Positions 7,168 to 23,584 of a stretch of DNA of 33,175 bases are shown in pieces. A program made the translations under genes and the position numbers. Below the pieces are notes generated by a model that did no database searches, was not told the DNA's origin, and was given only the letters and a program-made list of their open reading frames with translations. This DNA is from a virus. Its lineage: Duplodnaviria; Heunggongvirae; Uroviricota; Caudoviricetes. The DNA lies in the IMG/VR virus record IMGVR_UViG_3300035034_003552; one strand, given 5' to 3'. The number at the start of each line of letters is the position of its first letter. Positions within the stretch are counted from its first letter, which is position 1.

Positions 7168-8175
7168 ATGAGCAAAAAAACTGGTAATAACTTAGTTGAC
7201 CAGTATAGAAAGACATTTACATCTTTTAGTGGTGCTGATATTGTTGCTACATTTGCTGGAAAGGTAATCGGTGAATTGCAGCAGATTAGTTACTCTGTTA
7301 GCAGAGAGAAGGCTCCTATATATACTTTAGGTAGCTCAAACCCAAGAAGTTTCTCTCGAGGTAAAAGAGGTGTTGCTGGAAACCTAGTGTTTGCAGTATT
7401 TAATAGAGACGCACTTGTTGAAACCTTGAAAGAAGAGTTGGGTGACAGCTTAGGATATACAGCGGCTGGTAATACATCTGGCGGACTTAATAACATCAGT
7501 AAAGGACAGGATGACTTACTAAGAAAGAATAAGATCCTGGCTTCTACTATGGAAGATTGGAACGCCGCAACAGAAGAATTTGTTGGAGATGACGGTGGAG
7601 GTTTCGTTCAGATGGACGAAGTTAACCACGCAGATCAGCTGCCACCATTCAATATCGGGGTCAAATTGGCCCATATAGCGTAAACTGCTGGAACGCCCTA
7701 AAGCCATCTATACCACAACAGAACTGGTGACAGTAAATGTGATGGTTTAAAAAATAGATGGATAACATAATGGGTAATCAGCATCCAAGGGGCTATGGCA
7801 ACATAGTTCAAGGTTCAACGACTACTAAAAGTATCCTTCACGGATATGAGTAAGGGGTAATTGAGGTAACTCTTTTATCTGACACGTTACTGGCAATTTG
7901 CAGAAGATATAGTCTGTTCTTGTGTGAGAGCATAAGAGGTAGGCAGAGATGACCTATCTAAATAACAAAAAAGCAACTTCGCTAATGAATATGGACAGCA
8001 GGCACACTTTGAATTATTCGGCGTAGAAATCTTAAATGAGGGCGCTGGAATGTCTATCGATGATGTAGTAACAGAAAAGGCAGTAAGTTTCGTTGCTAGA
8101 AATGTTTCTTCTATCACATCTGGACCTAAAAATAGCGGTTCTTCCATTAAGGAAAGAGCTGGCAAAATTAGATAA
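7168..8175 (+). CDS. Major tail tube protein, split by a group I intron: join(7168..7661,7974..8175), 231 aa
   Basis: Exon 1 '...DQLPPFNIG' plus exon 2 '(V)NFANEYGQQAHFELFGVEILNEGAGMSIDDVVTEKAVSFVAR' aligns without gaps to the next paralog 'ELPPFDIVISFGSEYSKKSKMVIKGVTIVDEGQVMSINDMITENTMSFVAR'. The 171-aa ORF-track call is the unspliced read-through to TAA at 7681..7683. Confidence 0.9.
7662..7973 (+). ncRNA. Group I self-splicing intron (IA2-like), 312 nt, no homing endonuclease ORF
   Basis: 5' exon ends in U7661 and the intron ends in G7973. P1: GGGU with GCCC (U.G pair). P10: TTG 7666..7668 with exon 2 CAA. P3: TAGCGT 7676..7681 / ACGTTA 7884..7889. P4: TGCTG 7686..7690 / CAGCA 7779..7783. 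P6a: CTATG-GCAA-CATAG. P7: GACTA 7820..7824 / TAGTC 7910..7914 (R 'TCAACGACTA', S 'AAGATATAGTC'). P7.1/P7.2 hairpins present. P9 carries a GAGA tetraloop. Confidence 0.93.
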
Positions 8176-8185
8176 CACAATAAAT

Positions 8186-8207
8186 GCACGGGGTTTGCGC
8201 CCCGTGC
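8186..8207. terminator. GC-rich hairpin after the tail tube gene (no U-tract)
   Basis: GCACGGGG-tttgcg-CCCCGTGC, 10 nt after the exon 2 stop. This also supports 8175 as the real gene end. Confidence 0.55.
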
Positions 8208-8223
8208 CAAGGGGGTAAAAGAC

Positions 8224-9465
8224 ATGGGTAATCTCACAAAACAGCTTAAGAATACATATCAGTCTTATTCTGGGGTTGATATAATCGCAACATTAAATAT
8301 ACCAGGACATGGTGCCCTGACTGTAGGAGAACTGCAGACAGTAAGTTATTCTACACACAGAGAAAAGTGGCCAGTAAGAGCTTTGGGGCATACCAAAACT
8401 AAAGGTTACACTTATGGACCGCGGACTGTAGCAGGGAATTTAATATTTACTGTTTTTGATCACCATGTTTTTTACAGATTATTAAAGAAAACAGAAGCGA
8501 AAAATACCAGAATTCTATCAGACGAACTACCACCCTTTGATATAGTAATATCATTTGGTTCAGAATATAGTAAAAAATCTAAGATGGTAATAAAAGGTGT
8601 AACAATCGTAGATGAAGGACAGGTAATGAGTATCAACGACATGATAACAGAGAACACGATGTCTTTTGTTGCAAGAGATGTTGACCTCATGAAACCTATA
8701 GATTCAGCTTATCATTCAAGTGTAGATAACGTTGACAGAAATAGTATATATAATCAATTATCAACAGAAGTAAAAACTGAGCCTCAAAAAACAAATGACA
8801 AAATAACATACAACAAGGGGCCAACCGGCAGTCTTACTGGAACAGTAGAAACAGATGATAAACCAGCACATGGACTAAGGGTATCACTTACCTCTGAGGA
8901 AGCCGGGAGAAAAGAAACAGTATTTACCCAGAAAGATGGAAGGTTCACTTTTAAAGACACCTTACCTGCAACCTGGGACCTGGAAATAGACAAGCCCGGT
9001 TATGAAGATTATGAAGACAGGATAGAGATAAAGGCTAATAAAACTAAAGAACTCGGTAAACTGATACTAAGTAAGAATTTCAGTAATGTTGCTGAGATAA
9101 GACCTTCTGAGAATATGGATACAGATAAGAATATAGGCGGCTTTAGGGAAAGAGATGTAACACTAGAAGCCGAGACTATTTCAGAATATGGCTTTTCTGT
9201 TCCTAATATCATGGTCCAATGGGATATAAAAATAGATACAAAATCACAGGAAATTATAGATGAGTACGGAAAAGAATGGGTCTATTATGGTATCCATGAA
9301 ACAAATAATGATGGAATATCGAAAAACACCATAGACATACCTGAAAAGCTCGATCCCGGTGACAGCATAAACGTCAGGGTTAAGGTAATAGGAGATTATA
9401 TAGATTCCGTAAAGCCGTTTATGTTCACTATAAGAATCGAAGAAGGTGATGCTATTGGCAGGTAA
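8224..9465 (+). CDS. Tail tube-like paralog with C-terminal carboxypeptidase-regulatory-like and Ig-like domains
   Basis: N-terminal about 155 aa match the tube ('YSGVDIIAT...VGELQTVSYSTHREK...RTVAGNLIFTVF'). Followed by 'GSLTGTV...FTQKDGRFTFKDTLPATWDLEIDKPGYEDY'. Confidence 0.8.
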   Translation: MGNLTKQLKNTYQSYSGVDIIATLNIPGHGALTVGELQTVSYSTHREKWPVRALGHTKTKGYTYGPRTVAGNLIFTVFDHHVFYRLLKKTEAKNTRILSDELPPFDIVISFGSEYSKKSKMVIKGVTIVDEGQVMSINDMITENTMSFVARDVDLMKPIDSAYHSSVDNVDRNSIYNQLSTEVKTEPQKTNDKITYNKGPTGSLTGTVETDDKPAHGLRVSLTSEEAGRKETVFTQKDGRFTFKDTLPATWDLEIDKPGYEDYEDRIEIKANKTKELGKLILSKNFSNVAEIRPSENMDTDKNIGGFRERDVTLEAETISEYGFSVPNIMVQWDIKIDTKSQEIIDEYGKEWVYYGIHETNNDGISKNTIDIPEKLDPGDSINVRVKVIGDYIDSVKPFMFTIRIEEGDAIGR

Positions 9466-13900: not shown

Positions 13901-16526
13901 AACCATAGGGGAGATTATAAAACCCCAAAAAGATATGCACCTTGAAGATATGCAGCAGGGAGCTGGCAGTGCTGATGGTGAGAGTACTGGTAGTAATGCT
14001 GGCAGAGTTGCTGTTAAAAGTGATGGCAAGACTACTGACAGGGTTACTGGTAAATATACTGGTGGAACCGAAGAGGAAAGCCACATACCAGAGGGGGAGA
14101 GTGTCTATTATGTTCCTCCTTCCAGTATGCCAGAAAAAAGAAAGATGGTATCCAAAGGTAAAATAAGCATTGAAGAAATAAATAGACAGATCAAAGAAGA
14201 TGCCAAGAACAAAAACTTCATCACAATGAGACCACCTTATATGGATGATGATGTTGAGACTGCACCTGTTGAATCAGGAGATCCAAACTCAGCAGAATAC
14301 ACAGCAAGCGAAACCTACTATCGTGCCTCTGAAATGGCAGGTTTTTACGGGTTTGGGATTAGTGAAGTGACAGGACAGGGCGGAATAGAAAAACCAGTTC
14401 TGGCCAGTGCAGATGATATGAACTCCTATAGAAGAGGATTCTGGGATATGAACCTCGGTGGACTAGGTGGTGAGTTATCTGAGATAGTAAGAAGATTTAT
14501 TCCAAATAGACCCTACGGTCAAAAAGAAGCACAGATTAACCACATAAGAAATGAAATGCCAAACTGGATGCCCGGCAGTGATTACTTTAAGAACTTTAAA
14601 GAGGGAGATCCATTTACTAAAATCCCTAGAGGAGAAGCAAGGCTACCAGGTGAGGGTTATGAATCATTAAACGAATTACATCCAGATGAGTACGGAGAAG
14701 AATACGGCTCATACGATAGATTCAAGATCTTAGCGGATGTTGCCCCATATAGTCAAGAATACCAATACTATCGGGAAATAATTGAAAACAATGATGACCT
14801 ACCAGAAGAACTCAAAAAAGAAGCGGCACAGATAAAAAGAGAAGTATCAGAGAGGAAAAAGGACAGAAAGTTTCATCCTTATAGATTCCAGACTTCAAAC
14901 ATCAAAAAAGAAGAAGTTACGATTGAAAAAGTATTAGACTCTAATAATTACATGGTTGAAGAGTATCCAGATACGCCCATAAGATTAGCTGGATTACATG
15001 TGAGTACTGCAAAGAACAATGAAAAAGCCGAAAAAGCCAAGGAGTACTTAAACAAAAGAATTGAAGAGAGCGATAAAGTAACTATAGGTATTAATGAAGA
15101 TAAACTAAATAGAGTCAGAGATGATACCTATGGTACGATGCATGCTGTTATATATTCTGATGGAGAAAATATAAACAGAGAACTGATAGAAAAAGAACTA
15201 GCCAAGGAAAAAGAGAGCGATTATTCCCCAGAAGCAGTACATGCAAGATTCTCCAAATCAGAAATAGCAGTGGGTAAAGCGTGGGAACAGTTTGCTCACA
15301 TGGACACTCCCGCTCATACAAAGTACATGCAGGTAAGATCACCATTAGAGTCCTATAAAAGAAGAGACGTATATGGTAAGGACTGGCAGAGTTGGTCTGA
15401 GCCAGTTGATGACTTCTTAAAACCTACTTATGACAAGTTCATTACAAGAAATCCAGTTAAGGCAACTGTTGCCGGTGCTTTCATTGGTAGTCTATTCGGA
15501 AGAACTAAAAGAGGTAAAGCAATAGGCGCAATCGCAGGTGCCCTGACAATAGGAATAGGCTCTTTAACCAGAAGTATCAAAGAAAGAACTACTGGAGAAA
15601 AATGGGTACCAGAACGGGTTGAGAAAAAAAGAGAAATCAACAAGTATTTTGACATATTAGAATACGTAAAATATAAAGGACTATACGAAAAAACTATTGA
15701 TGAAGCCGAAGATGCAGGTATAGATGCTGAAGGAAAGATAGAAGAATATGCAAAAAGCGGCGAAGAGATCAAAATAGAGCGAAAGAAATTAACTAAAAAG
15801 AAAAGAGAGCTTTATAGAAAAGGAACATCTAAAGCAGAAGCAGAGATATCAAAGATAAATAAGAGGCTTAAGGAGCTATCCAAAGAGCGGAAAAAAGTAA
15901 CCAAGTTAGATGATTACACAGCTCAGGCTCTAGAATACAGAAATGAATATGAGTCAACACTCCAAGGAGCAGACCTAGGTGGATCACTTCAGAAATTATT
16001 CGGGGCAATACCAGATCCAGAGAGGTCGTATTTTACTGACTTCCTTGAAGCACCAGAAGAAGACAGAGACGAGATCGGAGAATTAGTACCAGATAATTTA
16101 AGAAGAATACTCCAGGCACATTGGGGTAAGGAACCAGATGAAAAGACCGACTTAAAATCTTACTTTAAAAAATACAAACTACCAGATAAAGACTGGCGCG
16201 GCTGGGAAGAATCAAACAGTCTTGATGACATAAAGCTTAAAGTAGTACAAAGTGAGAACGAAAACATGATTGAGTATGGTTACTGGGATGATGATATTGA
16301 GCAGGCAGACCTGAAAGGTGCAGAGCCTGTTGACTATGATGAAGGCACAAGTGTCTCAGAACTTAGAAAAAATCTCCAGGAGGTATTAGAAGGAGAAGGG
16401 CTATCAGATGTATCCATAGAAGTAGGGTCCTCAAATACTAATGGAGATAGATTTGATATTAATATAGAAAAGGACAGACGAGAAGAAATAAAACAGAAAC
16501 TAAATGAAGAAGGAATTAAATTTTAA
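10911..16526 (+). CDS. Tape-measure-like protein (1871 aa) with Gly/Ala hydrophobic segments and a degenerate SNase-fold domain
   Basis: Directly follows the G/GT chaperone. Largely helical. Hydrophobic segments near 11013..11069, 13310..13360 and 15450..15570. SNase-like domain at about 14910..15210. Confidence 0.72.
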   Translation: MPPYENSNRQYLADDSDHTSSSEARDRLQQKEGSILSPLLKIGAVAAGAYGAYRSGLLQAPLGFVTKQAGQYRSRYVDGPVSGIKRWVNNFGAENGKPLIDEVSEEMSRRAAKESDELHGRISNFEELLFEKERTIRQTEDVVKTELRYKETMDYLNKEMSDDGLSQLEEELRDGPSGMKQLLNDADLDTRLNKKLNDTDYNTYLNRPEYSAGTSELEEKIIAKNKRFIEKQYQEEMNRKFAGDSGRVKQTTGLDKLTVKDLYDRNLIGQEGTITTKSGLEEFDARKAVEKLAEDNPDVWNMAAGKGLLKEETGDVVDLRGIGETGSKVMNSLTYDFKIPFVNFNPLQMLHLQDFKMKREAPSFSILSAGQRQPVISSNKMDESLLYAGGSVQRILKPDDGPIATDTYLTSNRFGLMSRTMNELSGNSTMPKQQREEGFGKFVDKVKNTFDIFQQDQPSLFKEYKSAFSKFNNDDWVKNQTADLINGNKFDDPEKAVGNIRGFLDSRSKGFRGEVWDALDDDISNVFHDIDNIDLRDDDEVINLLRKFATDRNTQVSDKYRARFKGLWNRYAKDPQRFKDGKRVLSNKSAIDRLQNTEMISNVDDARKLISKEFTYRYGTDNSDQLIKQLSRAKKNKEITVSGYREAVETITSTNFDDISTPDFKQTKEDAIRQTVNFFGSESKKAKQKRKNLMDVVNQHSKFWQKGPSGLKKNLPKSDWLIMNKSVTPADAIKSKEGASKFVGQFFAGRDNMQDVTTATTLPFYMFERLNRGLGMFGMGLSGRSMSSPQAMYGNLMTKRVLPVVGVMAGAKYASYEYEKATGKDLDDEFADLGARAKLDFARLRDKTGATDAFKRLDMLTPGNENISEFPGINFLDYAKTEEEVKEDLTTGREPVRKGRYWPFGNTPFIGDRTEYFVPNWYRRAKSDYEYTDVKYGSKDEYWENSAIPTPRHPTSPIKHFITDQYHYEKKHYNRRPYPKTGKMGYEIPLIGPAVSATIGEIIKPQKDMHLEDMQQGAGSADGESTGSNAGRVAVKSDGKTTDRVTGKYTGGTEEESHIPEGESVYYVPPSSMPEKRKMVSKGKISIEEINRQIKEDAKNKNFITMRPPYMDDDVETAPVESGDPNSAEYTASETYYRASEMAGFYGFGISEVTGQGGIEKPVLASADDMNSYRRGFWDMNLGGLGGELSEIVRRFIPNRPYGQKEAQINHIRNEMPNWMPGSDYFKNFKEGDPFTKIPRGEARLPGEGYESLNELHPDEYGEEYGSYDRFKILADVAPYSQEYQYYREIIENNDDLPEELKKEAAQIKREVSERKKDRKFHPYRFQTSNIKKEEVTIEKVLDSNNYMVEEYPDTPIRLAGLHVSTAKNNEKAEKAKEYLNKRIEESDKVTIGINEDKLNRVRDDTYGTMHAVIYSDGENINRELIEKELAKEKESDYSPEAVHARFSKSEIAVGKAWEQFAHMDTPAHTKYMQVRSPLESYKRRDVYGKDWQSWSEPVDDFLKPTYDKFITRNPVKATVAGAFIGSLFGRTKRGKAIGAIAGALTIGIGSLTRSIKERTTGEKWVPERVEKKREINKYFDILEYVKYKGLYEKTIDEAEDAGIDAEGKIEEYAKSGEEIKIERKKLTKKKRELYRKGTSKAEAEISKINKRLKELSKERKKVTKLDDYTAQALEYRNEYESTLQGADLGGSLQKLFGAIPDPERSYFTDFLEAPEEDRDEIGELVPDNLRRILQAHWGKEPDEKTDLKSYFKKYKLPDKDWRGWEESNSLDDIKLKVVQSENENMIEYGYWDDDIEQADLKGAEPVDYDEGTSVSELRKNLQEVLEGEGLSDVSIEVGSSNTNGDRFDINIEKDRREEIKQKLNEEGIKF

Positions 16527-16537
16527 GGGGTGTAAGT

Positions 16538-19500
16538 ATGGCTAACAACATTGAATCTAATTTAGACATAAAAAGTGGAACTATATGGGAACAACTGGAA
16601 CCAGAAGTAAGAGACCAGCTTAGGTATTCTGGGTTTTTTACAAAAGATTCTTTAGCTGAAAACACCTCACCTTCATATATTCCTTTCAAAAAAGTAAAGG
16701 GTGTGCCAAATAGTAATAACAGAAATTATTCTGGCAGCGGCGAAGACTATGAGCAATTACATAATAACTTAATAAACACCATACAAGAAAGACAGCAAGC
16801 AAACCAGGCAATTTTAGATGTTGATAGTTTTAATAGCCAAATGCTCGATGAATACAGGGATGTATCAAGATCAGATACCAGAAAAGCCAAACTTGATTGG
16901 ATAAAAAGTCAGGGGATAGAAAAATATGATTCAAATGCTAGAGACTGGAGCTGGAAGAGGATATACAAAACCTATGGCCAGAACACGGAAATAGATATCT
17001 GGCGCGATGTTACTAATATGCACAATAACAATAAACCACAACAAGCACTAGAGTCGTATATGAGCATGAGAAGAGACAGTCAGAGTGCGATGTTTTTTGA
17101 CCTTGAGACTTTTGGTAGTTTCGATCAAAGGACTGGTGAAGTAGGCAATTACTTCATGCCCTATCAGGCAAGTTTTACTGAGGGGAGATTTATTGACGGT
17201 GAGTTTAAAAGTTCAAATAATACAAGATCATTTCTTATAAATCCAGAAAGCACCAAGCAGATAGACGGGATAAGAAGTGCTATAGATAAACTTAAAACAA
17301 GTGGATCTAGTCCAGCATCCCTAACTGATGCAGAATATAGAACCGTAAGAGATCTTATAAAGATTTCAGAAGCGGATGTAAATAATGGAGAAATTACTAA
17401 TATACCATCATGGGTTGATAAAGAAATACCAGAACAAGGTGTAACAGACTTAAGTAAGTATGTAACAAATGCCGAAAAGGGATTAGAAAAGTTGAAGAAA
17501 GAAGGTCAGTCTCCAGAAAAATTATACGATTACTGGAATAGATTAACAGAAAACAACATGGTTGCAGGACATAATATTACAAATTACGACATGCCCGCAC
17601 TGCAGACTTTCGCCAGAGAGGAAGGCATTAAGGCAAATACTACTGATAATGTTTTCGATACTCTAAACTTATTTAGATCACTCAGTACAGACCCAGAAAG
17701 AGATATGTTTGGTGGAAATAACACTTCAAGTAAGGGCCCGCTAACACTCGATGCTTTTAGGGAAAAGCACGGGATTATCGGTGATAGTCATACTGGTACT
17801 TTTGATAATAGATCCCTGGTAGAAATACTGAATAGAGAACAAAACAATATAGATAATTCTTTAAATAATATGCTTTACAAATCTGACGCTGATCGTGCAA
17901 CAAAAGAAACTATGGATAATATATTTCAAATAGATAATAAATCAATTAGAACAGGAGATGTACTATTTGCTCCACAAGGCCAGCACCAATATGGAGAGGC
18001 TGCAGCAGATATGGTACTTAACCCTACCGAAGAAGGCCTATCGAAGCAGATGTTCCCTGAAGTATCAGTAAGAAGAAAGTCCTTTTATCAAGTATCAGAC
18101 GCTTTTGGGGATCAGGGTAGATTTAATGTAGTATTAAAGAACTTATCTGATGAAAATGTTCATGTAATATCAAGAGAAAATAAATCAGATCTACAAAACT
18201 ATATACAAAAGATGTTTAACTATCACGGCAGAGAAGTAGGTGACGAGTTAAATACTATAAAACAATCCTATCAAAGTGACCTTGCCAGAGGAAGATATAG
18301 AAGATTATTTTCTGGAGATAACAGGTCGTTTAAAAATAGCAAAATGTTTTTTGATGCTTTAGATATAGAAGATGAATCAGAACTATTAGAACATTTCAAT
18401 TCTGAACAGCAACTTAGGGACTTTGAGAACATGAGGCCAAGGTTGGAGTCAGAAGTAGAAGTAGTAAGACCAGCGTTAGAAAGAATAGAAGAGCAGTTCG
18501 GAGAAAACAATCCGAAATCAGATAAAGCTATGATTCAGCTTAAGAGGTTCATGGATGACAGCTTTGGGTCACATAGAGAAGAAATAGATTTATTAGATTT
18601 TGAGCAGCGAAGAGTCGATATACCAACAATTGACGGTAAAACTTCTTCAGTAAACATCCCAAACTTTGAAGAAGGTAGTCAAAACATGTGGTGGAAAGTT
18701 TACAATGAGACCAAAGGCAAAGAAAAAAGAGCCAGAGATGTCTACATGAAGGATATCCTATCAAGATTAGAAAGAGACGAAATAATCACAGCTCAAAAGA
18801 GGCAGAAAATAGCTGAGAAAGATAATGTGAGATATCAGATACAAGCATTAGTGGATGATCTGATGCATAATGACGAACTGGCAAAGGCAAATCAAACACT
18901 TGAAGTAGAGTCAGTCAAGGCAAGAAATATAATGGTAAGTGGAGAAGAAGCTGTAAAGAAGGGTAGAGCCTTCGGGTCCCAGGCGATTGATATAACACAA
19001 AAAGGGGATTTTAATGGTAAATATATTCAGAATGAACTTGATAAATTAAGTACCAAAGCGAGCAAGACTCTGCCTGATGGATTTAATTACGACTTTAAAA
19101 AGAACGTAGATGAAATAAGTAATATATTAGACAAATCATATAAAGGAAAAGGCGTAGGGTTTACATTCAGCTTTTCTGAGGAAACAGGTAATTTAACCCT
19201 GACAGTATCTGATAGAGAGATGGTAGATAGCGTAGAAAAAAGCTTACTTAAAGGTACTCCGTCCAGAAAAGCCGCTTATGTAAATATTCCAATGCCAGAT
19301 GAGGACGGGTTAATACATCAAAAGAGTATAACTAAGGCAGCACAGGGTTTTATAAAAACAGATAATACAAGAGGTGCACCCAAATACGGAGTCAGAACAG
19401 CAACCGTAACCGATGAGGTTGTAAGAGGAATAGACAGAAAAGCAACTCAGATAAGACAGACTATAGAAGATGGGAATATAGAAGAAGCCCAAAGACAATT

Positions 19501-22500
19501 AAACCATGCAGTAAATAATGTCTTAGAAGATCTGCCTGATACATCAAAAGGCATAACTTCAGGTGGGAAAAAGTACACAACACCATCTGATACTGCTAAG
19601 AGGAACTATATAAGAGCTGACGGAATAGCTCCAAAAGTGGCCAGTGATTTAGGGTTAGAGGAAAAGAGCGCCTATAAAGATATAATGGCCGACAAAGGAT
19701 TCTTGGAATTAGATGATTTAAGATTAGGTGACAGAATGAAGGTCATAAGAGAGATGCCAGCCTATCTGGAAAATAGTGGTGCCTCACAGGTTCCTGGAAT
19801 GGAAGACTTAAATCTTAAGGTAAACAGTGGATCAGTAAAGGCAAAACATGTAGGTAATGCAAACTTTTCAGCTATGGACTTAAGAGATTACAGACCATTT
19901 GCACACTACACATCCGCTACTAGACCTAACATTATTCAGATGAATAGACACTATCAGCTAGAAGATGAAGCTATAGAGGCTGTTAGTAAAAGCGGAACAA
20001 TGTCTTTCGGGAATAACATTATGACAGAAGAAATGTTTGGTCTGGAAAAAGCCCAGGGCAGCAAACCATCTAACATATCAATGAACGTGGCAATGTTGTA
20101 TGACAATAGAGTCTTAGATAATTTGTATGAACATTACGGTGAAAATAGTAACTTTATAACTAAAGGTAGTACTTATGAAAATACAGCCGTAATCAGGGAA
20201 AGTAATATGCAGTTATTCGATGGGTACAGGCAGAAATCACTAAGTATCCCCGATGTTGTAGATGCTGATATAGAGTTCAGCGGTGCAGTAAAAAGAGCTT
20301 CTGAGGGTGAAGAAGTAATATTAAAACCCAACGATATAATAGCAAAATATATAGATGAGGGCGGAAGAGAACGACAGTTAAGATATACCGAAAACACAGA
20401 GGGAATTATAAGTAATATAGACCTTAGACCAGGACAGGAACGGGTAGAAGTGGCAGTTAATATGCCAGGCCAGACATCAATGAAAATGGATGTTGAAGGT
20501 GAAAAAGTAACAGTTATCCCTATGGCTGATGAAACAATGGATAAATTCTTCGGTAAAGATATAGGGATGGCCTATGCAAGTAATATAGAAAAACACGAAG
20601 ACTTTGGGTCCCCAATAGCAGGTCAGGTAAATAAGGTAATAGATAAGATAGAAAACATAGATGACGACAAACTTAGGTCAGACGAGAGAAAAAGATTCGT
20701 AAATAAATTTAATGAAGTATTTGAACAGGATATAACCACAGATAATTTTGTAGAATATAACGGTGACACCGTATTAAAAGTCGGAGGAAGCTCGGAGAAC
20801 TGGACTAATGACATAAAACCAAAAGAAGTTCAGCAGCTGCTAAAAGATTTTGAAGTCGATGAGACAAGGACTCTGGCCACAGGAGATCAAGTAGTAACAC
20901 AAAAACAGGCTGTAGGAAGACAGCAGGTCGACGAGCATCTGAGACTAAAAACCTCAATCGGCGGAACTCCAGAATGGGATGTTCAAGATGTTGGAGTCAA
21001 ATTCGGACCGCGTCAAACATTTGCCGTAGAAGAATTATGGGGAATGGAAAAAACAGGACAGTATATAAGAGGCAAAGCACTAGAAGACAGCAGTGTTGAT
21101 GGGCAGGTCCGCGAATCTATAAGAGCAATGAGGTTCATGGAAGAAGGAATACCAGAGAATGCACCAGTAAACGCCCCAGAAGACTTTAATAGAGCAGTAA
21201 GAGGTATCAACGGTTACTTGGACGAAAGCCTAGAAGGCACCGTTATAAACCCATCTCAGACCTCTGAAGGCGTTGGAGCTTTTATGAAAATACCAGAGGT
21301 TCAGATAGATGATGGAACCGGTAAAAGAGTCAATGTAGATAGTGTTTACATGGCAAGCAGAGAGCTGGGTAGAACAAGTGGCGGCAGAGCAGAGTTAGAT
21401 AAGATACAGAGCCTGCAGTCTAGGATTCATGATCTTTCACTAGAATACAATGAGCGGATGGTAAGACCGGATGATGTAAAAACTACCGACCTTAGACCAT
21501 TCAGTAAAATAACAGAAGATCTAAGTAAGACAGTTGAGAACTATTACAAAGAGCTTTCTGATAGTGTAGCCGGTAAGAGTGGGGATGTGGCTAAAAACTT
21601 AACGGTTAGAATGCCTACATCAGGACATGGAAGAATAAGGATAATGAGTCCGACTACTCCTACTGCAGAAAGTGTATTTAAAGAAAGTGACTGGAATGAA
21701 ATATTAGGAGCAGAAGGAAGCGAGTCATATGACATATTCCAGGATAAAGTTAGTAAGTACCAGAAAGAACTAGGTACAGATATAGTGGAAGAAAACACCA
21801 TGTATATCTCAAAAGAGCGGGCCAGAGAAATGGCCACAGATAAGATTACCGGTGAGGTTGATGATCAGCTATTAAAACAGATGGGTGGAGAAGGATCCTA
21901 TGGCTTAGGGATAAGATATCCTATGTTCTTCAAAGAGGCAGCCCAGCCGGTAAAGTTCAAGACTCACGGAGATGTAACTGGTAATGACTTATGGATGACT
22001 CCAGGTACAGCAGACATCTTGAACGCTGATAGTGATGGTGATACTGGAGCCTTTTTCATAACAAGAGATTTCCATGAAGATAAAAGCATAAAAGGAAAAA
22101 CAAAAAGGATCAGAACTCAATCTTCACTCGATGCAGAAAATGAAATAAAAAATAAATTCCAGAGTAAAGAGTTAATAAATGCCAGAAGAGAACAGGCGAC
22201 AAATGCAGTATCAGACTATATGCAAAAGATGAATACTACGAACGAAGAGTTCGTTAAGAACTTCAATGAAAACATACAGTCTGCAGCCAGGAAAAAAGGT
22301 ACAGGACTTCAGACATTGGATAATCTAGTACCTGACAAAGTATTTAAAGCCAATGTTGGTGCTGAGGCGGACGAGGCGGTCATGCACTCCAAGCTCGGTA
22401 AGATGGGTATTGGTTACCTATCCAACATAAACATGAAAATTAAGCAGCTTGCAAAAGGTGTAGAGAATAAAAACTCAAAAGTATTTAACAGAATGTTTAA

Positions 22501-23584
22501 GGATATAGACACAGGAGATAAAACAGCCTTTCAATCCATAGAGCGTTTCGGACAGATGCTAGAGCAGGAATTCATTGATGTTAAACATGATGACCTTATA
22601 ACAATAGGAAGCGCTGGCAAGGGTATGGAAGGTGTACACATCTCCAAAGAGGTTGGAACAGCCATCAATCAAGGCAACTTCGACTTCTTAAGTAGTATAA
22701 AGAAAGAGAGTACTGGTGAAAAAATATTCGACCAGGCAGATCTTGAGGTAGTAGAACAATTTACTAAATCAATGAAAGATATAGATGCCTGGTATGCTCC
22801 AGAAACAAGAATGTTTTTAAGTAGTCAGATGGCAGACTACGGAGGTGGGGCTGGCGGAATAATGGATCTTGCGAAAAGGTCCGAAACTGGTGATACAGTT
22901 CTAACCCCTTATTTAAAGGATGTACTGGGAGAAGCTGGTATTAAAGAATCAGCTGACAGTAATGTGATAAGAAGATTGAAGAATCTATCACCAGATAGCA
23001 TAAGTGGTTCACAGGCTGCAAAGGGTGCGACCACAACTAGTATTGGTGCTACTAGAAACCTTGCTCCAGATCAGATAGCAAATTCTGCAAAAAGCTTTGT
23101 GGATAAAGCAGGTAAAACACTTAAGGGAGCTGGAGCTATCGCAGGAGTGGCGGCAGGTGCATACGCTGTAAGTCATTTCTTCAGAAAAGATCCAATTAGC
23201 CCCGAAGATCTTCCACAGGCCGATAAGTCTCCAGATGTTAATGGTAAGTATGACATGAATAAATATAAAATCGAGAGAGAAAGACAGCAGGAGAGAGAGC
23301 AACAAAAAAAACAGGCCGAGCAAAGAGAAAGAGGTAATAGAAAAGTAAACACCGAGTCCAATCAAGCCTATATCCAGAATAACGGGGCCGGCAAGAACAT
23401 AAAGATATCTGGAAAAGGAAATGTGGATACCGAGAGGATAGCATCAGTAATAGAGCAGCAGGCCTCACAGAGAGGTTCAGAAGCTAACATCAACATGAAT
23501 ATAAGAGACAATACAGATAATATAGATAATGCGTGGATGCAGCAGAGAGTTTCAGAAGCTATAAATGATGGTTATACGCATTAA
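16538..23584 (+). CDS. Single-chain two-barrel (beta+beta'-like) RNA polymerase fused to an N-terminal DEDDh 3'-5' exonuclease; probable virion RNAP
   Basis: Colinear motif matches to cellular RNAP beta then beta', including NADSDGD at 22022..22042 (aa 1829-1835), 'GIRYP', 'GKSGD...KNL.VRMPTSG' and 'KMDVEGEK'. Exonuclease motifs DLE (D188/E190), 'GHNITNYD' (D351) and 'HTGTFD' (H418/D423). Confidence 0.85.
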   Translation: MANNIESNLDIKSGTIWEQLEPEVRDQLRYSGFFTKDSLAENTSPSYIPFKKVKGVPNSNNRNYSGSGEDYEQLHNNLINTIQERQQANQAILDVDSFNSQMLDEYRDVSRSDTRKAKLDWIKSQGIEKYDSNARDWSWKRIYKTYGQNTEIDIWRDVTNMHNNNKPQQALESYMSMRRDSQSAMFFDLETFGSFDQRTGEVGNYFMPYQASFTEGRFIDGEFKSSNNTRSFLINPESTKQIDGIRSAIDKLKTSGSSPASLTDAEYRTVRDLIKISEADVNNGEITNIPSWVDKEIPEQGVTDLSKYVTNAEKGLEKLKKEGQSPEKLYDYWNRLTENNMVAGHNITNYDMPALQTFAREEGIKANTTDNVFDTLNLFRSLSTDPERDMFGGNNTSSKGPLTLDAFREKHGIIGDSHTGTFDNRSLVEILNREQNNIDNSLNNMLYKSDADRATKETMDNIFQIDNKSIRTGDVLFAPQGQHQYGEAAADMVLNPTEEGLSKQMFPEVSVRRKSFYQVSDAFGDQGRFNVVLKNLSDENVHVISRENKSDLQNYIQKMFNYHGREVGDELNTIKQSYQSDLARGRYRRLFSGDNRSFKNSKMFFDALDIEDESELLEHFNSEQQLRDFENMRPRLESEVEVVRPALERIEEQFGENNPKSDKAMIQLKRFMDDSFGSHREEIDLLDFEQRRVDIPTIDGKTSSVNIPNFEEGSQNMWWKVYNETKGKEKRARDVYMKDILSRLERDEIITAQKRQKIAEKDNVRYQIQALVDDLMHNDELAKANQTLEVESVKARNIMVSGEEAVKKGRAFGSQAIDITQKGDFNGKYIQNELDKLSTKASKTLPDGFNYDFKKNVDEISNILDKSYKGKGVGFTFSFSEETGNLTLTVSDREMVDSVEKSLLKGTPSRKAAYVNIPMPDEDGLIHQKSITKAAQGFIKTDNTRGAPKYGVRTATVTDEVVRGIDRKATQIRQTIEDGNIEEAQRQLNHAVNNVLEDLPDTSKGITSGGKKYTTPSDTAKRNYIRADGIAPKVASDLGLEEKSAYKDIMADKGFLELDDLRLGDRMKVIREMPAYLENSGASQVPGMEDLNLKVNSGSVKAKHVGNANFSAMDLRDYRPFAHYTSATRPNIIQMNRHYQLEDEAIEAVSKSGTMSFGNNIMTEEMFGLEKAQGSKPSNISMNVAMLYDNRVLDNLYEHYGENSNFITKGSTYENTAVIRESNMQLFDGYRQKSLSIPDVVDADIEFSGAVKRASEGEEVILKPNDIIAKYIDEGGRERQLRYTENTEGIISNIDLRPGQERVEVAVNMPGQTSMKMDVEGEKVTVIPMADETMDKFFGKDIGMAYASNIEKHEDFGSPIAGQVNKVIDKIENIDDDKLRSDERKRFVNKFNEVFEQDITTDNFVEYNGDTVLKVGGSSENWTNDIKPKEVQQLLKDFEVDETRTLATGDQVVTQKQAVGRQQVDEHLRLKTSIGGTPEWDVQDVGVKFGPRQTFAVEELWGMEKTGQYIRGKALEDSSVDGQVRESIRAMRFMEEGIPENAPVNAPEDFNRAVRGINGYLDESLEGTVINPSQTSEGVGAFMKIPEVQIDDGTGKRVNVDSVYMASRELGRTSGGRAELDKIQSLQSRIHDLSLEYNERMVRPDDVKTTDLRPFSKITEDLSKTVENYYKELSDSVAGKSGDVAKNLTVRMPTSGHGRIRIMSPTTPTAESVFKESDWNEILGAEGSESYDIFQDKVSKYQKELGTDIVEENTMYISKERAREMATDKITGEVDDQLLKQMGGEGSYGLGIRYPMFFKEAAQPVKFKTHGDVTGNDLWMTPGTADILNADSDGDTGAFFITRDFHEDKSIKGKTKRIRTQSSLDAENEIKNKFQSKELINARREQATNAVSDYMQKMNTTNEEFVKNFNENIQSAARKKGTGLQTLDNLVPDKVFKANVGAEADEAVMHSKLGKMGIGYLSNINMKIKQLAKGVENKNSKVFNRMFKDIDTGDKTAFQSIERFGQMLEQEFIDVKHDDLITIGSAGKGMEGVHISKEVGTAINQGNFDFLSSIKKESTGEKIFDQADLEVVEQFTKSMKDIDAWYAPETRMFLSSQMADYGGGAGGIMDLAKRSETGDTVLTPYLKDVLGEAGIKESADSNVIRRLKNLSPDSISGSQAAKGATTTSIGATRNLAPDQIANSAKSFVDKAGKTLKGAGAIAGVAAGAYAVSHFFRKDPISPEDLPQADKSPDVNGKYDMNKYKIERERQQEREQQKKQAEQRERGNRKVNTESNQAYIQNNGAGKNIKISGKGNVDTERIASVIEQQASQRGSEANINMNIRDNTDNIDNAWMQQRVSEAINDGYTH

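Follow-up and report, generated by a model that had tools for sequence, protein, structure and literature searches.

Does a giant protein encoded among the tail genes of a phage carry a complete RNA polymerase (RNAP) on a single chain? The question is raised by a stretch of 33,175 nucleotides (hereafter the window) from a virus of the Caudoviricetes, IMG/VR record IMGVR_UViG_3300035034_003552. The list of open reading frames (ORFs) and their translations places on its + strand, to which all window coordinates below refer, an ORF at 16538..23584 for a giant tail-module protein of 2348 aa, P0001. A first-pass annotation, made from the sequence alone, had proposed a cryptic single-chain beta-beta' RNAP in the tail module at 19860-22600. 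The proposal holds and so does the location; the extent has to be corrected, as the polymerase module reaches from ~19706 to 22747 and is part of the longer ORF. Judged by sequence profile, predicted fold and residue conservation, which agree, aa ~1057-2070 is a fused two-barrel RNA polymerase of beta-then-beta' order. We further consider it probable that the ORF as a whole joins an exonuclease to a complete single-chain two-barrel RNAP, and that this protein is packaged and transcribes the incoming phage genome.

At the sequence level the evidence comes from the family to which P0001 belongs. The family is small: one large protein search yielded five clusters, a second one 23 representatives at 50% identity. 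With few exceptions the proteins have a length of 2200-2600 aa, and those with a name are all called "hypothetical protein". A full-length alignment comprised 24 homologs with ~20% identity to P0001, and a family profile covering aa 1040-2070 was compared with all PDB sequences. It matched 122 chains, and the best 60 of these are all RNAP largest subunits except for one flagellin chain (E 0.005). The top match is the non-virion RNAP subunit gp55 of phiKZ (beta'-N; 7ogp_A; E 1.3e-8), followed by beta' of Thermus, Taq and E. coli and the largest subunits of African swine fever virus (ASFV), Pol II and Pol V, with E values from 1.5e-5 to 7e-3. The HMMER alignments pass through the GKQGRFR..SGR, NRAPTLH and NADFDGD blocks, with NADFDGD paired to ADsDGD of the family. 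Beta' had been aligned by eye in the first-pass annotation, and the profile matches RNAP beta' over exactly those stretches (E 1e-8 to 1e-3). On the profile and on the fold described below, the beta'-like half of the polymerase occupies aa ~1532-2070 (21131..22747).

Other searches define how far this similarity extends. When the 24 members were scanned singly against Pfam, PF00623 gave weak matches in 8 of them (E 2e-4 or weaker, all below threshold) and PF00562 gave none in any of the 24. PF05183, the family of RNA-dependent RNA polymerases (RdRP) and YonO, has no match in P0001 or the other 23 members; the positive control, gp99 of Bacillus phage 0305phi8-36, scored 67.6 bits. A phmmer search of PDB sequences with P0001 produced a chance match only (E 0.25). 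Neither megablast nor tblastn of aa 1000-2050 found a match in 50,697 phage records, and tblastn with two divergent family members likewise found none there. Homologs in cultured phages were reached only by the 24-sequence profile, and a related-locus search of IMG/VR with P0001 found none.

Conservation within the family points to a working active site. The polymerase positions Q1134, K1316, K1323, T1325, R1492, R1793, P1795, D1831, D1833, G1834, D1835, G1959 and K2016 are invariant throughout the 24 homologs, and R1129 is kept in 22 of them. The catalytic loop NADSDGD (aa 1829-1835; 22022..22042) holds the metal-binding triad D1831, D1833 and D1835; its D-x-D-G-D is present in all 24 sequences, and DSDGD is the sole DxDxD of P0001. 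The F-to-S change noticed in this loop at first pass is real, and more family members have S here than any other residue. In the beta-type barrel, the basic pair K1316-x6-K1323-x-T1325 (20483..20512) forms a conserved K-x6-K-x-T block, again unchanged in 24/24, with its two lysines 7 residues apart. In E. coli beta, the basic pair is spaced by 8. Several other blocks of the family alignment can be laid beside those of cellular enzymes: PFG.Y...GR.N..Q beside PF..H....R....Q of beta/Rpb2, YEQQ beside FED, G..FG.RE...L...G beside GQRFGEME, and RYPTFH..A.Q beside NRAPTLH..GIQ. Further family blocks are SSKG......L....P.SG.G, ADSDGD, K.GK..IG..SN.N...RQ and LEQ..IS.KH. The peptides on which the original proposal was built are all present, where it had placed them, in this one ORF: RPFAHYTSATRPNIIQ at 1119-1134, K1316/K1323 within MKMDVEGEKVT, GVKFGPRQ at 1486, LSDSVAGKSGD at 1673, GIRYPMFF at 1791, NADSDGD at 1829-1835, KMGIGYLSN at 1955 and EQEFIDVKH at 2009-2017.

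The predicted fold adds the beta-like half. An AlphaFold2 (AF2) model of the polymerase was built with the 24-sequence alignment (predicted local distance difference test score, pLDDT, 81.8; predicted template modelling score, pTM, 0.76). With Foldseek the model has at least 500 matches of E <0.001; second-largest subunits (Pol I A135, bacterial beta, ASFV, archaeal B) fill the top ranks, the best with 5.5e-9. Using VIA-align, model residues 18-477 (aa 1057-1516) can be placed onto E. coli beta ~537-1297 with Z 16-17 and a root-mean-square deviation (rmsd) of ~3.9 Å over ~385 residues; Vibrio beta likewise gives Z 16-17, beta-C of the phiKZ non-virion RNAP (8que_C) 17.0 and beta-C of AR9 (7s00_C) 16.3. 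This half of the protein (aa ~1057-1516; 19706..21085) would thereby contain the fork, the hybrid-binding region and the first double-psi barrel. In a representative-wide VIA search, model residues 493-1031 (aa 1532-2070) matched Pol I A190 with Z 11.2 over 373 residues, and other largest subunits followed (Sulfolobus A' 10.9, Rpb1 10.7, M. tuberculosis beta' 9.4). Stand-alone double-psi barrel domains (CDC48-N and a designed barrel) match model residues 655-845.

Several single-chain enzymes align with both halves at once. QDE-1 does so with Z 11.1 over 383 residues (model 27-1031), P74-26 gp62 with 9.3, P23-45 gp96 with 8.1, RDR2 with 8.0 and crAss gp66 with 6.0 (rmsd 6.3 Å). Because these alignments run across both halves, the barrels are paired in the model as they are in solved polymerases. 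Structure prediction had been named as a check on the original idea, and the paired double-psi barrels of the AF2 model, spanned by QDE-1, gp62, gp96 and gp66, bear the idea out. In the model, each half is far closer to true beta/beta' and to the phiKZ/AR9 enzymes than to polymerases of the YonO/RdRP, crAss or P23-45 types.

Two elements behind the catalytic loop deserve attention. A 37-residue AF2 helix in bridge-helix position (aa 1942-1978; 22361..22471), which contains KMGIGYLSN, falls within the stretch that aligns with largest subunits, and K1955 and S1962 in it are conserved in the family. It is followed by an arrangement of helix, disordered loop and helix in trigger-loop position (aa ~1997-2045; 22526..22672): the first helix covers 1997-2017, the low-pLDDT loop 2017-2032, and K-H at 2016-2017 closes an EQ..I..KH motif. 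The model makes it probable that these are the bridge helix and the trigger loop, respectively. A third element, a small beta-sandwich (aa ~1229-1311; 20222..20470; model 190-272), is inserted within the beta-like barrel and shows weak local matches (Z ~6) to the hybrid-motif domains of HlyD, CusB and the NusG insert. Beta subunits of cellular, killer-plasmid and phiKZ-type polymerases possess a sandwich-barrel hybrid motif, those of the RdRP/YonO type do not (PMC7824862). The sandwich matches would weakly fit a hybrid-motif insert of the kind that marks cellular/phiKZ-type beta, without proving such an insert.

What else does the protein contain? Ahead of the polymerase lies a DEDDh 3'-5' exonuclease domain (aa ~179-444; 17072..17869), recognized by conservation, by the sole PHROG match in P0001 (phrog_403, aa 320-385) and by its AF2 fold. 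The residues that define a DEDDh enzyme are in place: D188/E190 of Exo I, D351 of Exo II and H418-x4-D423 of Exo III. All 24 homologs have D188, E190, N346, D351, D374 and D423, and 23 of them have H418. A second AF2 model (aa 140-1075, pLDDT 83.6) gives the exonuclease fold a Z of 14.1 to PolC exonuclease, ExoI and DinG-exo and of 13.5 to Pol III epsilon; overall, comparisons with PolC, ExoI, Pol III epsilon and TREX1-like domains yield Z 12-14. Foldseek with this model finds RNase T and TREX, and the family profile finds DnaQ-type domains. Between exonuclease and polymerase, a middle alpha/beta region (aa ~460-1050; 17915..19687) is confidently predicted, with pLDDT mostly >80; the match lists of the aa 140-1075 model are taken up by the exonuclease. 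The C-terminal ~200 aa consist of a Gly/Ala-rich hydrophobic segment (~2196-2216) and a conserved end domain in which D2324 is invariant. We describe the segment only as Gly/Ala-rich and hydrophobic because Kyte-Doolittle windows at a threshold of 1.5 called no transmembrane helix in P0001.

The gene is the middle one of three that encode giant proteins of 1871, 2348 and 1793 aa, with 11 and 17 nt between one gene and the next. The upstream giant, P0002 (10911..16526), is an ortholog of gp145 of 0305phi8-36 (BLASTP E 4e-149). The downstream one, P0003 (23602..28983), is an ortholog of the baseplate hub gp147 (phrog_20474, E 9e-191; tblastn against gp147, E 2e-65) and also matches the hub-position genes of phages Edson, KLEB27-3, WH1 and MTATph1. 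Both flanking giants thus confirm the relationship of this phage to 0305phi8-36. Two tail-sheath genes, tail-tube paralogs and small chaperone-position genes precede the giants, baseplate-wedge genes follow them, and this set of genes identifies the locus as the tail module of a contractile-tailed phage. The Firmicutes-type phage suspected at first pass agrees with the closest cultured relatives, which are Bacillus phages. The first-pass placement of the gene between tape measure protein (TMP) and hub is correct on the hub side, where the gp147 ortholog lies downstream; on the other side, the published TMP of 0305phi8-36 occupies P0001's own slot (PMC2147016).

Two side observations concern the neighbouring genes. 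P0002 shows a weak staphylococcal-nuclease match (PF00565, aa 1372-1442, window 15024-15236) of 22.8 bits at a cut-off of 21, and judging by this sequence match the polymerase's neighbour may also carry a nuclease-derived domain. At window 7168-8223, the first tail-tube paralog stops at 7683, some 540 bases without a long + strand ORF follow, and the next paralog begins at 8224.

Is the polymerase a regular inhabitant of this slot? The cassette of three giants recurs on a 213-kb metagenomic contig, where it encloses a homolog of 21% identity, and in three Bacillus phages in culture, vB_BauM_KLEB27-3, vB_BceM_WH1 and Edson, again with a homolog inside. The family profile finds gp034 of KLEB27-3 (2434 aa, E 5e-70, with DYDGD) and gp095 of WH1 (2515 aa, E 7e-51, with DHDGD); a copy in Edson (XXQ04534), compared with WH1 gp095 over 301 aa around the catalytic loop, shares 90% identity with it there. 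Depositors labelled the KLEB27-3 and WH1 proteins "(virion) structural protein" and the Edson protein "hypothetical protein". The first-pass expectation that such genes would go under hypothetical was a good one, since homologs are labelled either hypothetical or structural.

In 0305phi8-36 the slot holds gp146, a 2537-aa protein that mass spectrometry detected in virions and that has been proposed in print as the tape measure of that phage (PMC2147016); gp145 was also identified in virions by mass spectrometry, according to the record annotation. The only part that gp146 has in common with P0001 is the C-terminal region, where P0001 2142-2347 (22961..23578) aligns with gp146 2357-2534 (BLASTP E 3e-5). 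The idea that gp146 might be a diverged polymerase we reject: hhalign gives a probability of 0.3%, there is no DxDxD, and the polymerase profile does not match. With slot, neighbours and C-terminal end conserved and the body different, the arrangement fits a C-terminal anchor that places varied cargo in the tail. Separately, we note an exonuclease-like DIETTG string near residue 1235 of gp146 (L003:9600-17213), which has no Pfam match; hhalign between the region behind the exonuclease of P0001 and gp146 1719-1820 returned a probability of 28%, too weak for use. P0001 itself is unlikely to be a classical tape measure. Its aa 140-2070 are predicted to form compact mixed alpha/beta domains, not a long helical ruler, and its gene is the second, not the first, after the chaperone-position genes.

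Other relatives show further variation. In Moorella phage MTATph1 (L004:9778-17134), the slot between the first giant and a hub-like "endolysin" is taken by a 1309-aa ORF, followed by a transposase and then three small ORFs. In the MTATph1 genome the polymerase profile has no match, and the gene of this slot may have been broken up or exchanged for another. The counterparts of gp146 in BtI1 and BwK1, elements of the B. cereus group, align with it only over the last 60 residues, which was ascribed to fast tape-measure divergence (PMC2147016). As gp146 shows the same C-terminal-only match pattern with polymerase-bearing proteins, some of the BtI1/BwK1 slot genes may, by analogy, bear a polymerase instead. 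Two genome scans aimed at BtI1/BwK1 found nothing; the peptide patterns used were poor and the scans therefore little informative.

From the position in the tail operon, the C-terminal region shared with gp146 and the depositors' labels, we infer that P0001 is packaged in the virion. Activity, template, delivery route and timing we infer as follows. The protein would be made late, together with the tail, and incorporated into the particle via its C-terminal end, beside the gp145 and hub orthologs. At infection it would be expelled through the contractile tail and refold at or in the membrane. DNA-dependent transcription of the entering genome, without host RNA polymerase, would then lead to expression of the first phage genes. 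In this process the beta-type half would contribute the fork, the hybrid-binding elements and the two-lysine barrel, the beta'-type half the metal site, the bridge-type helix and the trigger-type loop. The exonuclease may act on 3' ends of RNA or DNA. A second polymerase, of YonO-like type, might take over afterwards in some relatives at least.

The last step is suggested by a 206-kb IMG/VR relative (G001; CheckV 100% complete) that encodes a giant tail-module polymerase (profile E 7e-290) and also, on the - strand at L012:1393-5094, a 1233-aa protein with GGADNDGDE. The latter matches gp99 of 0305phi8-36 by BLASTP (E 1e-10) and is invisible to Pfam PF05183; its sequence makes it probably a second, non-virion polymerase. 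So far, the 0305phi8-36 group has been credited in the literature only with the YonO-like gp99 (PMC2147016, PMC7824862). In P23-45, the virion enzyme transcribes the first genes, including the gene for the non-virion enzyme (PMC10770324), and the pair of giant polymerase and gp99-like protein in G001 may, by analogy, mirror this two-polymerase scheme. PF05183 and gp99 searches of KLEB27-3, WH1 and MTATph1 were insensitive and found no YonO-like gene. This result says little, because the divergent copy of G001 also escaped PF05183.

Several observations weigh against the reading of P0001 as a packaged, active RNAP. On its own P0001 reaches the threshold of no Pfam family; by the Pfam criterion it is not a member of any RNAP domain, and the homology becomes visible only with family profile and structure. 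A profile of the beta-like half alone has no match among PDB sequences, for which reason this half rests on predicted structure and motifs. Most members retain H2017 in the trigger position, but a few have another residue there. In 0305phi8-36, the nearest relative to have been studied well, the slot is without a polymerase. No paper that we found explains how the labels of the KLEB27-3, WH1 and Edson homologs, "structural" for the first two, came about. Finally, ~1900 residues are predicted to form globular domains whose passage through the tail tube in the folded state is impossible, the main difficulty for the proposed packaging and delivery.

A stronger form of the proposal would place P0001 in a new beta/beta' lineage on one chain, with a DEDDh exonuclease in cis that cooperates with the polymerase and with delivery through the contractile tail as a part of the tail core. 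The exonuclease would then either trim 3' ends of backtracked or mis-incorporated transcripts, or prepare a DNA end as template. If true, this would be the first two-barrel RNAP in which a dedicated exonuclease domain replaces factors of the Gre/TFIIS type. In this complete form we regard the idea as rather unlikely.

The same exonuclease can be read in a different manner. A DEDDh domain fused to a polymerase is how proofreading DNA polymerases are classically built, and in P0001 the exonuclease residues are as invariant as those of the polymerase. PolD has the same two-barrel active site (PMC10770324, PMC7281927), and QDE-1, which acts on RNA and DNA templates (PMC9508822), aligns over both halves with Z 11.1. 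P0001 might therefore be an enzyme of other chemistry or template, primase-like, RNA-dependent (QDE-1/RdRP) or proofreading and PolD-like, that primes or repairs the genome and makes no mRNA. Yet the closest relatives of its halves are DNA-dependent multisubunit RNAPs (Z 16-17 and 9-11), and PolD is absent from the 50 best representatives of the fold search, which is not proof of absence. The sequence profile matches only beta'/Rpb1 (in the best 60, one flagellin aside), PF05183 has no match, and the protein has a probable trigger-type loop with a conserved K-H as well as a hybrid-binding motif of beta type. We think this explanation improbable.

It might also be asked whether the polymerase-like module does any catalysis. 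P0001 could be mainly a structural protein of tail or ejection, and the module a relic, or a clamp or plug that binds DNA. The homolog in the slot of 0305phi8-36 has, after all, been published as the candidate tape measure (PMC2147016) and carries no polymerase module, and the conserved hydrophobic segment and end domain at the C-terminus resemble an assembly or membrane element. A relic, however, would lose the invariance of its three aspartates, both lysines and the residues in bridge and trigger position, all of which are kept at ~20% identity, and the predicted compact globular shape of aa 140-2070 is unlike the extended helix of a length ruler. There is only a slender chance that this is the case. 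Just as slight is the chance of an active DNA-dependent RNAP that stays unpackaged and acts late in the cell, its tail-operon location being accidental: the only polymerase so far recognized in the lineage, 0305phi8-36 gp99, is indeed a free-standing non-virion gene (PMC2147016, PMC7824862), but the position between gp145 and hub orthologs is kept in five independent loci, the C-terminus is common to P0001 and the virion protein gp146 verified by mass spectrometry, and a polymerase expressed only with tail genes would presumably come too late for the same infection cycle.

If P0001 is, as we favor, a packaged polymerase that transcribes the incoming genome, what does it add? A cryptic virion two-barrel RNAP within a giant structural protein is already known from crAss-like phages and P23-45. 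The known virion two-barrel RNAPs are phiKZ-, crAss- and P23-45-like only, and each of them changed the understanding of early infection. The P0001 family would be the fourth case, in a different lineage, the giant Bacillus myophages similar to 0305phi8-36 and their uncultured relatives, which published surveys credit with a YonO-like polymerase or none (PMC2147016, PMC7824862). In the literature on 0305phi8-36, two-barrel and virion RNAPs, tape-measure fusions and the three cultured phages, and in jumbo-phage reviews, we found no description of the family. Its polymerase resembles true beta/beta' far more than do the other enzymes on a single chain, none of which has an exonuclease. The case bears on how large folded enzymes pass through a contractile tail and on the minimal size of a beta/beta' enzyme, as well as on the claim that the slot gene is merely a fast-diverging tape measure. 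As three cultured Bacillus phages carry the gene, direct testing is possible.

Within the lineage itself, 0305phi8-36 offers two proteins for comparison. gp146 occupies the same slot between gp145 and gp147 and ends in the same C-terminal ~200 residues. gp99 is a separate PF05183 protein of 1218 aa, and its sequence is unrelated to the polymerase module of P0001.

Outside the lineage, the best matches for both halves are the RNAPs of phiKZ and AR9 (7OGP/8QUE, 7S00/7S01; PMC7598289). They are, like P0001, of beta/beta' type and not of YonO type, and their virion versions are injected. They are assembled from four or five polypeptides whose genes lie apart from those of the tail, and the virion form is packaged in the head, whereas P0001 is one chain, encoded in a tail operon of the unrelated 0305phi8-36-like lineage. 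The beta-then-beta' order on one chain is found in Orf6 of the K. lactis killer plasmid pGKL2, a 982-aa Rpb2::Rpb1 fusion (PMC2919709). By its description, Orf6 is a minimal polymerase of ~1000 residues, as is the module of P0001, and has barrels, hybrid-binding and fork elements and a bridge helix, the last of these only probable in P0001; it differs in that it works free in the cytoplasm, is encoded by a eukaryotic linear plasmid and reportedly has no recognisable trigger loop (PMC2919709).

Among virion enzymes on a single chain, gp66 of crAss-like phi14:2 (6VR4; 10.1101/2020.03.07.982082) shares with P0001 its size (~2200 aa), the two barrels, the aspartate triad and the giant neighbours. 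Its fold likeness to P0001 is weak, it is closest to the QDE-1 type, and it belongs to a podovirus-like particle. The other such enzyme is gp96 of Thermus phage P23-45 (also of P74-26, G20c and TSP4; 8H2M/8H2N), a virion two-barrel RNAP fused to the TMP (PMC10770324). Common to both are the single chain, D-x-D-G-D, the giant tail-module protein, hydrophobic segments and, at least in some relatives of P0001, a second non-virion single-chain polymerase. The differences are considerable: no sequence similarity was detected between the two, the fold Z is only ~8, and the gp96 polymerase is a flat clamp-less core without exonuclease, located at the N-terminus of a 5002-aa TMP in a phage with a long non-contractile tail, whereas P0001 is encoded with a contractile tail and has its DEDDh exonuclease ahead of the polymerase. 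For the way in which P0001 would work, P23-45 gp96 is the best model.

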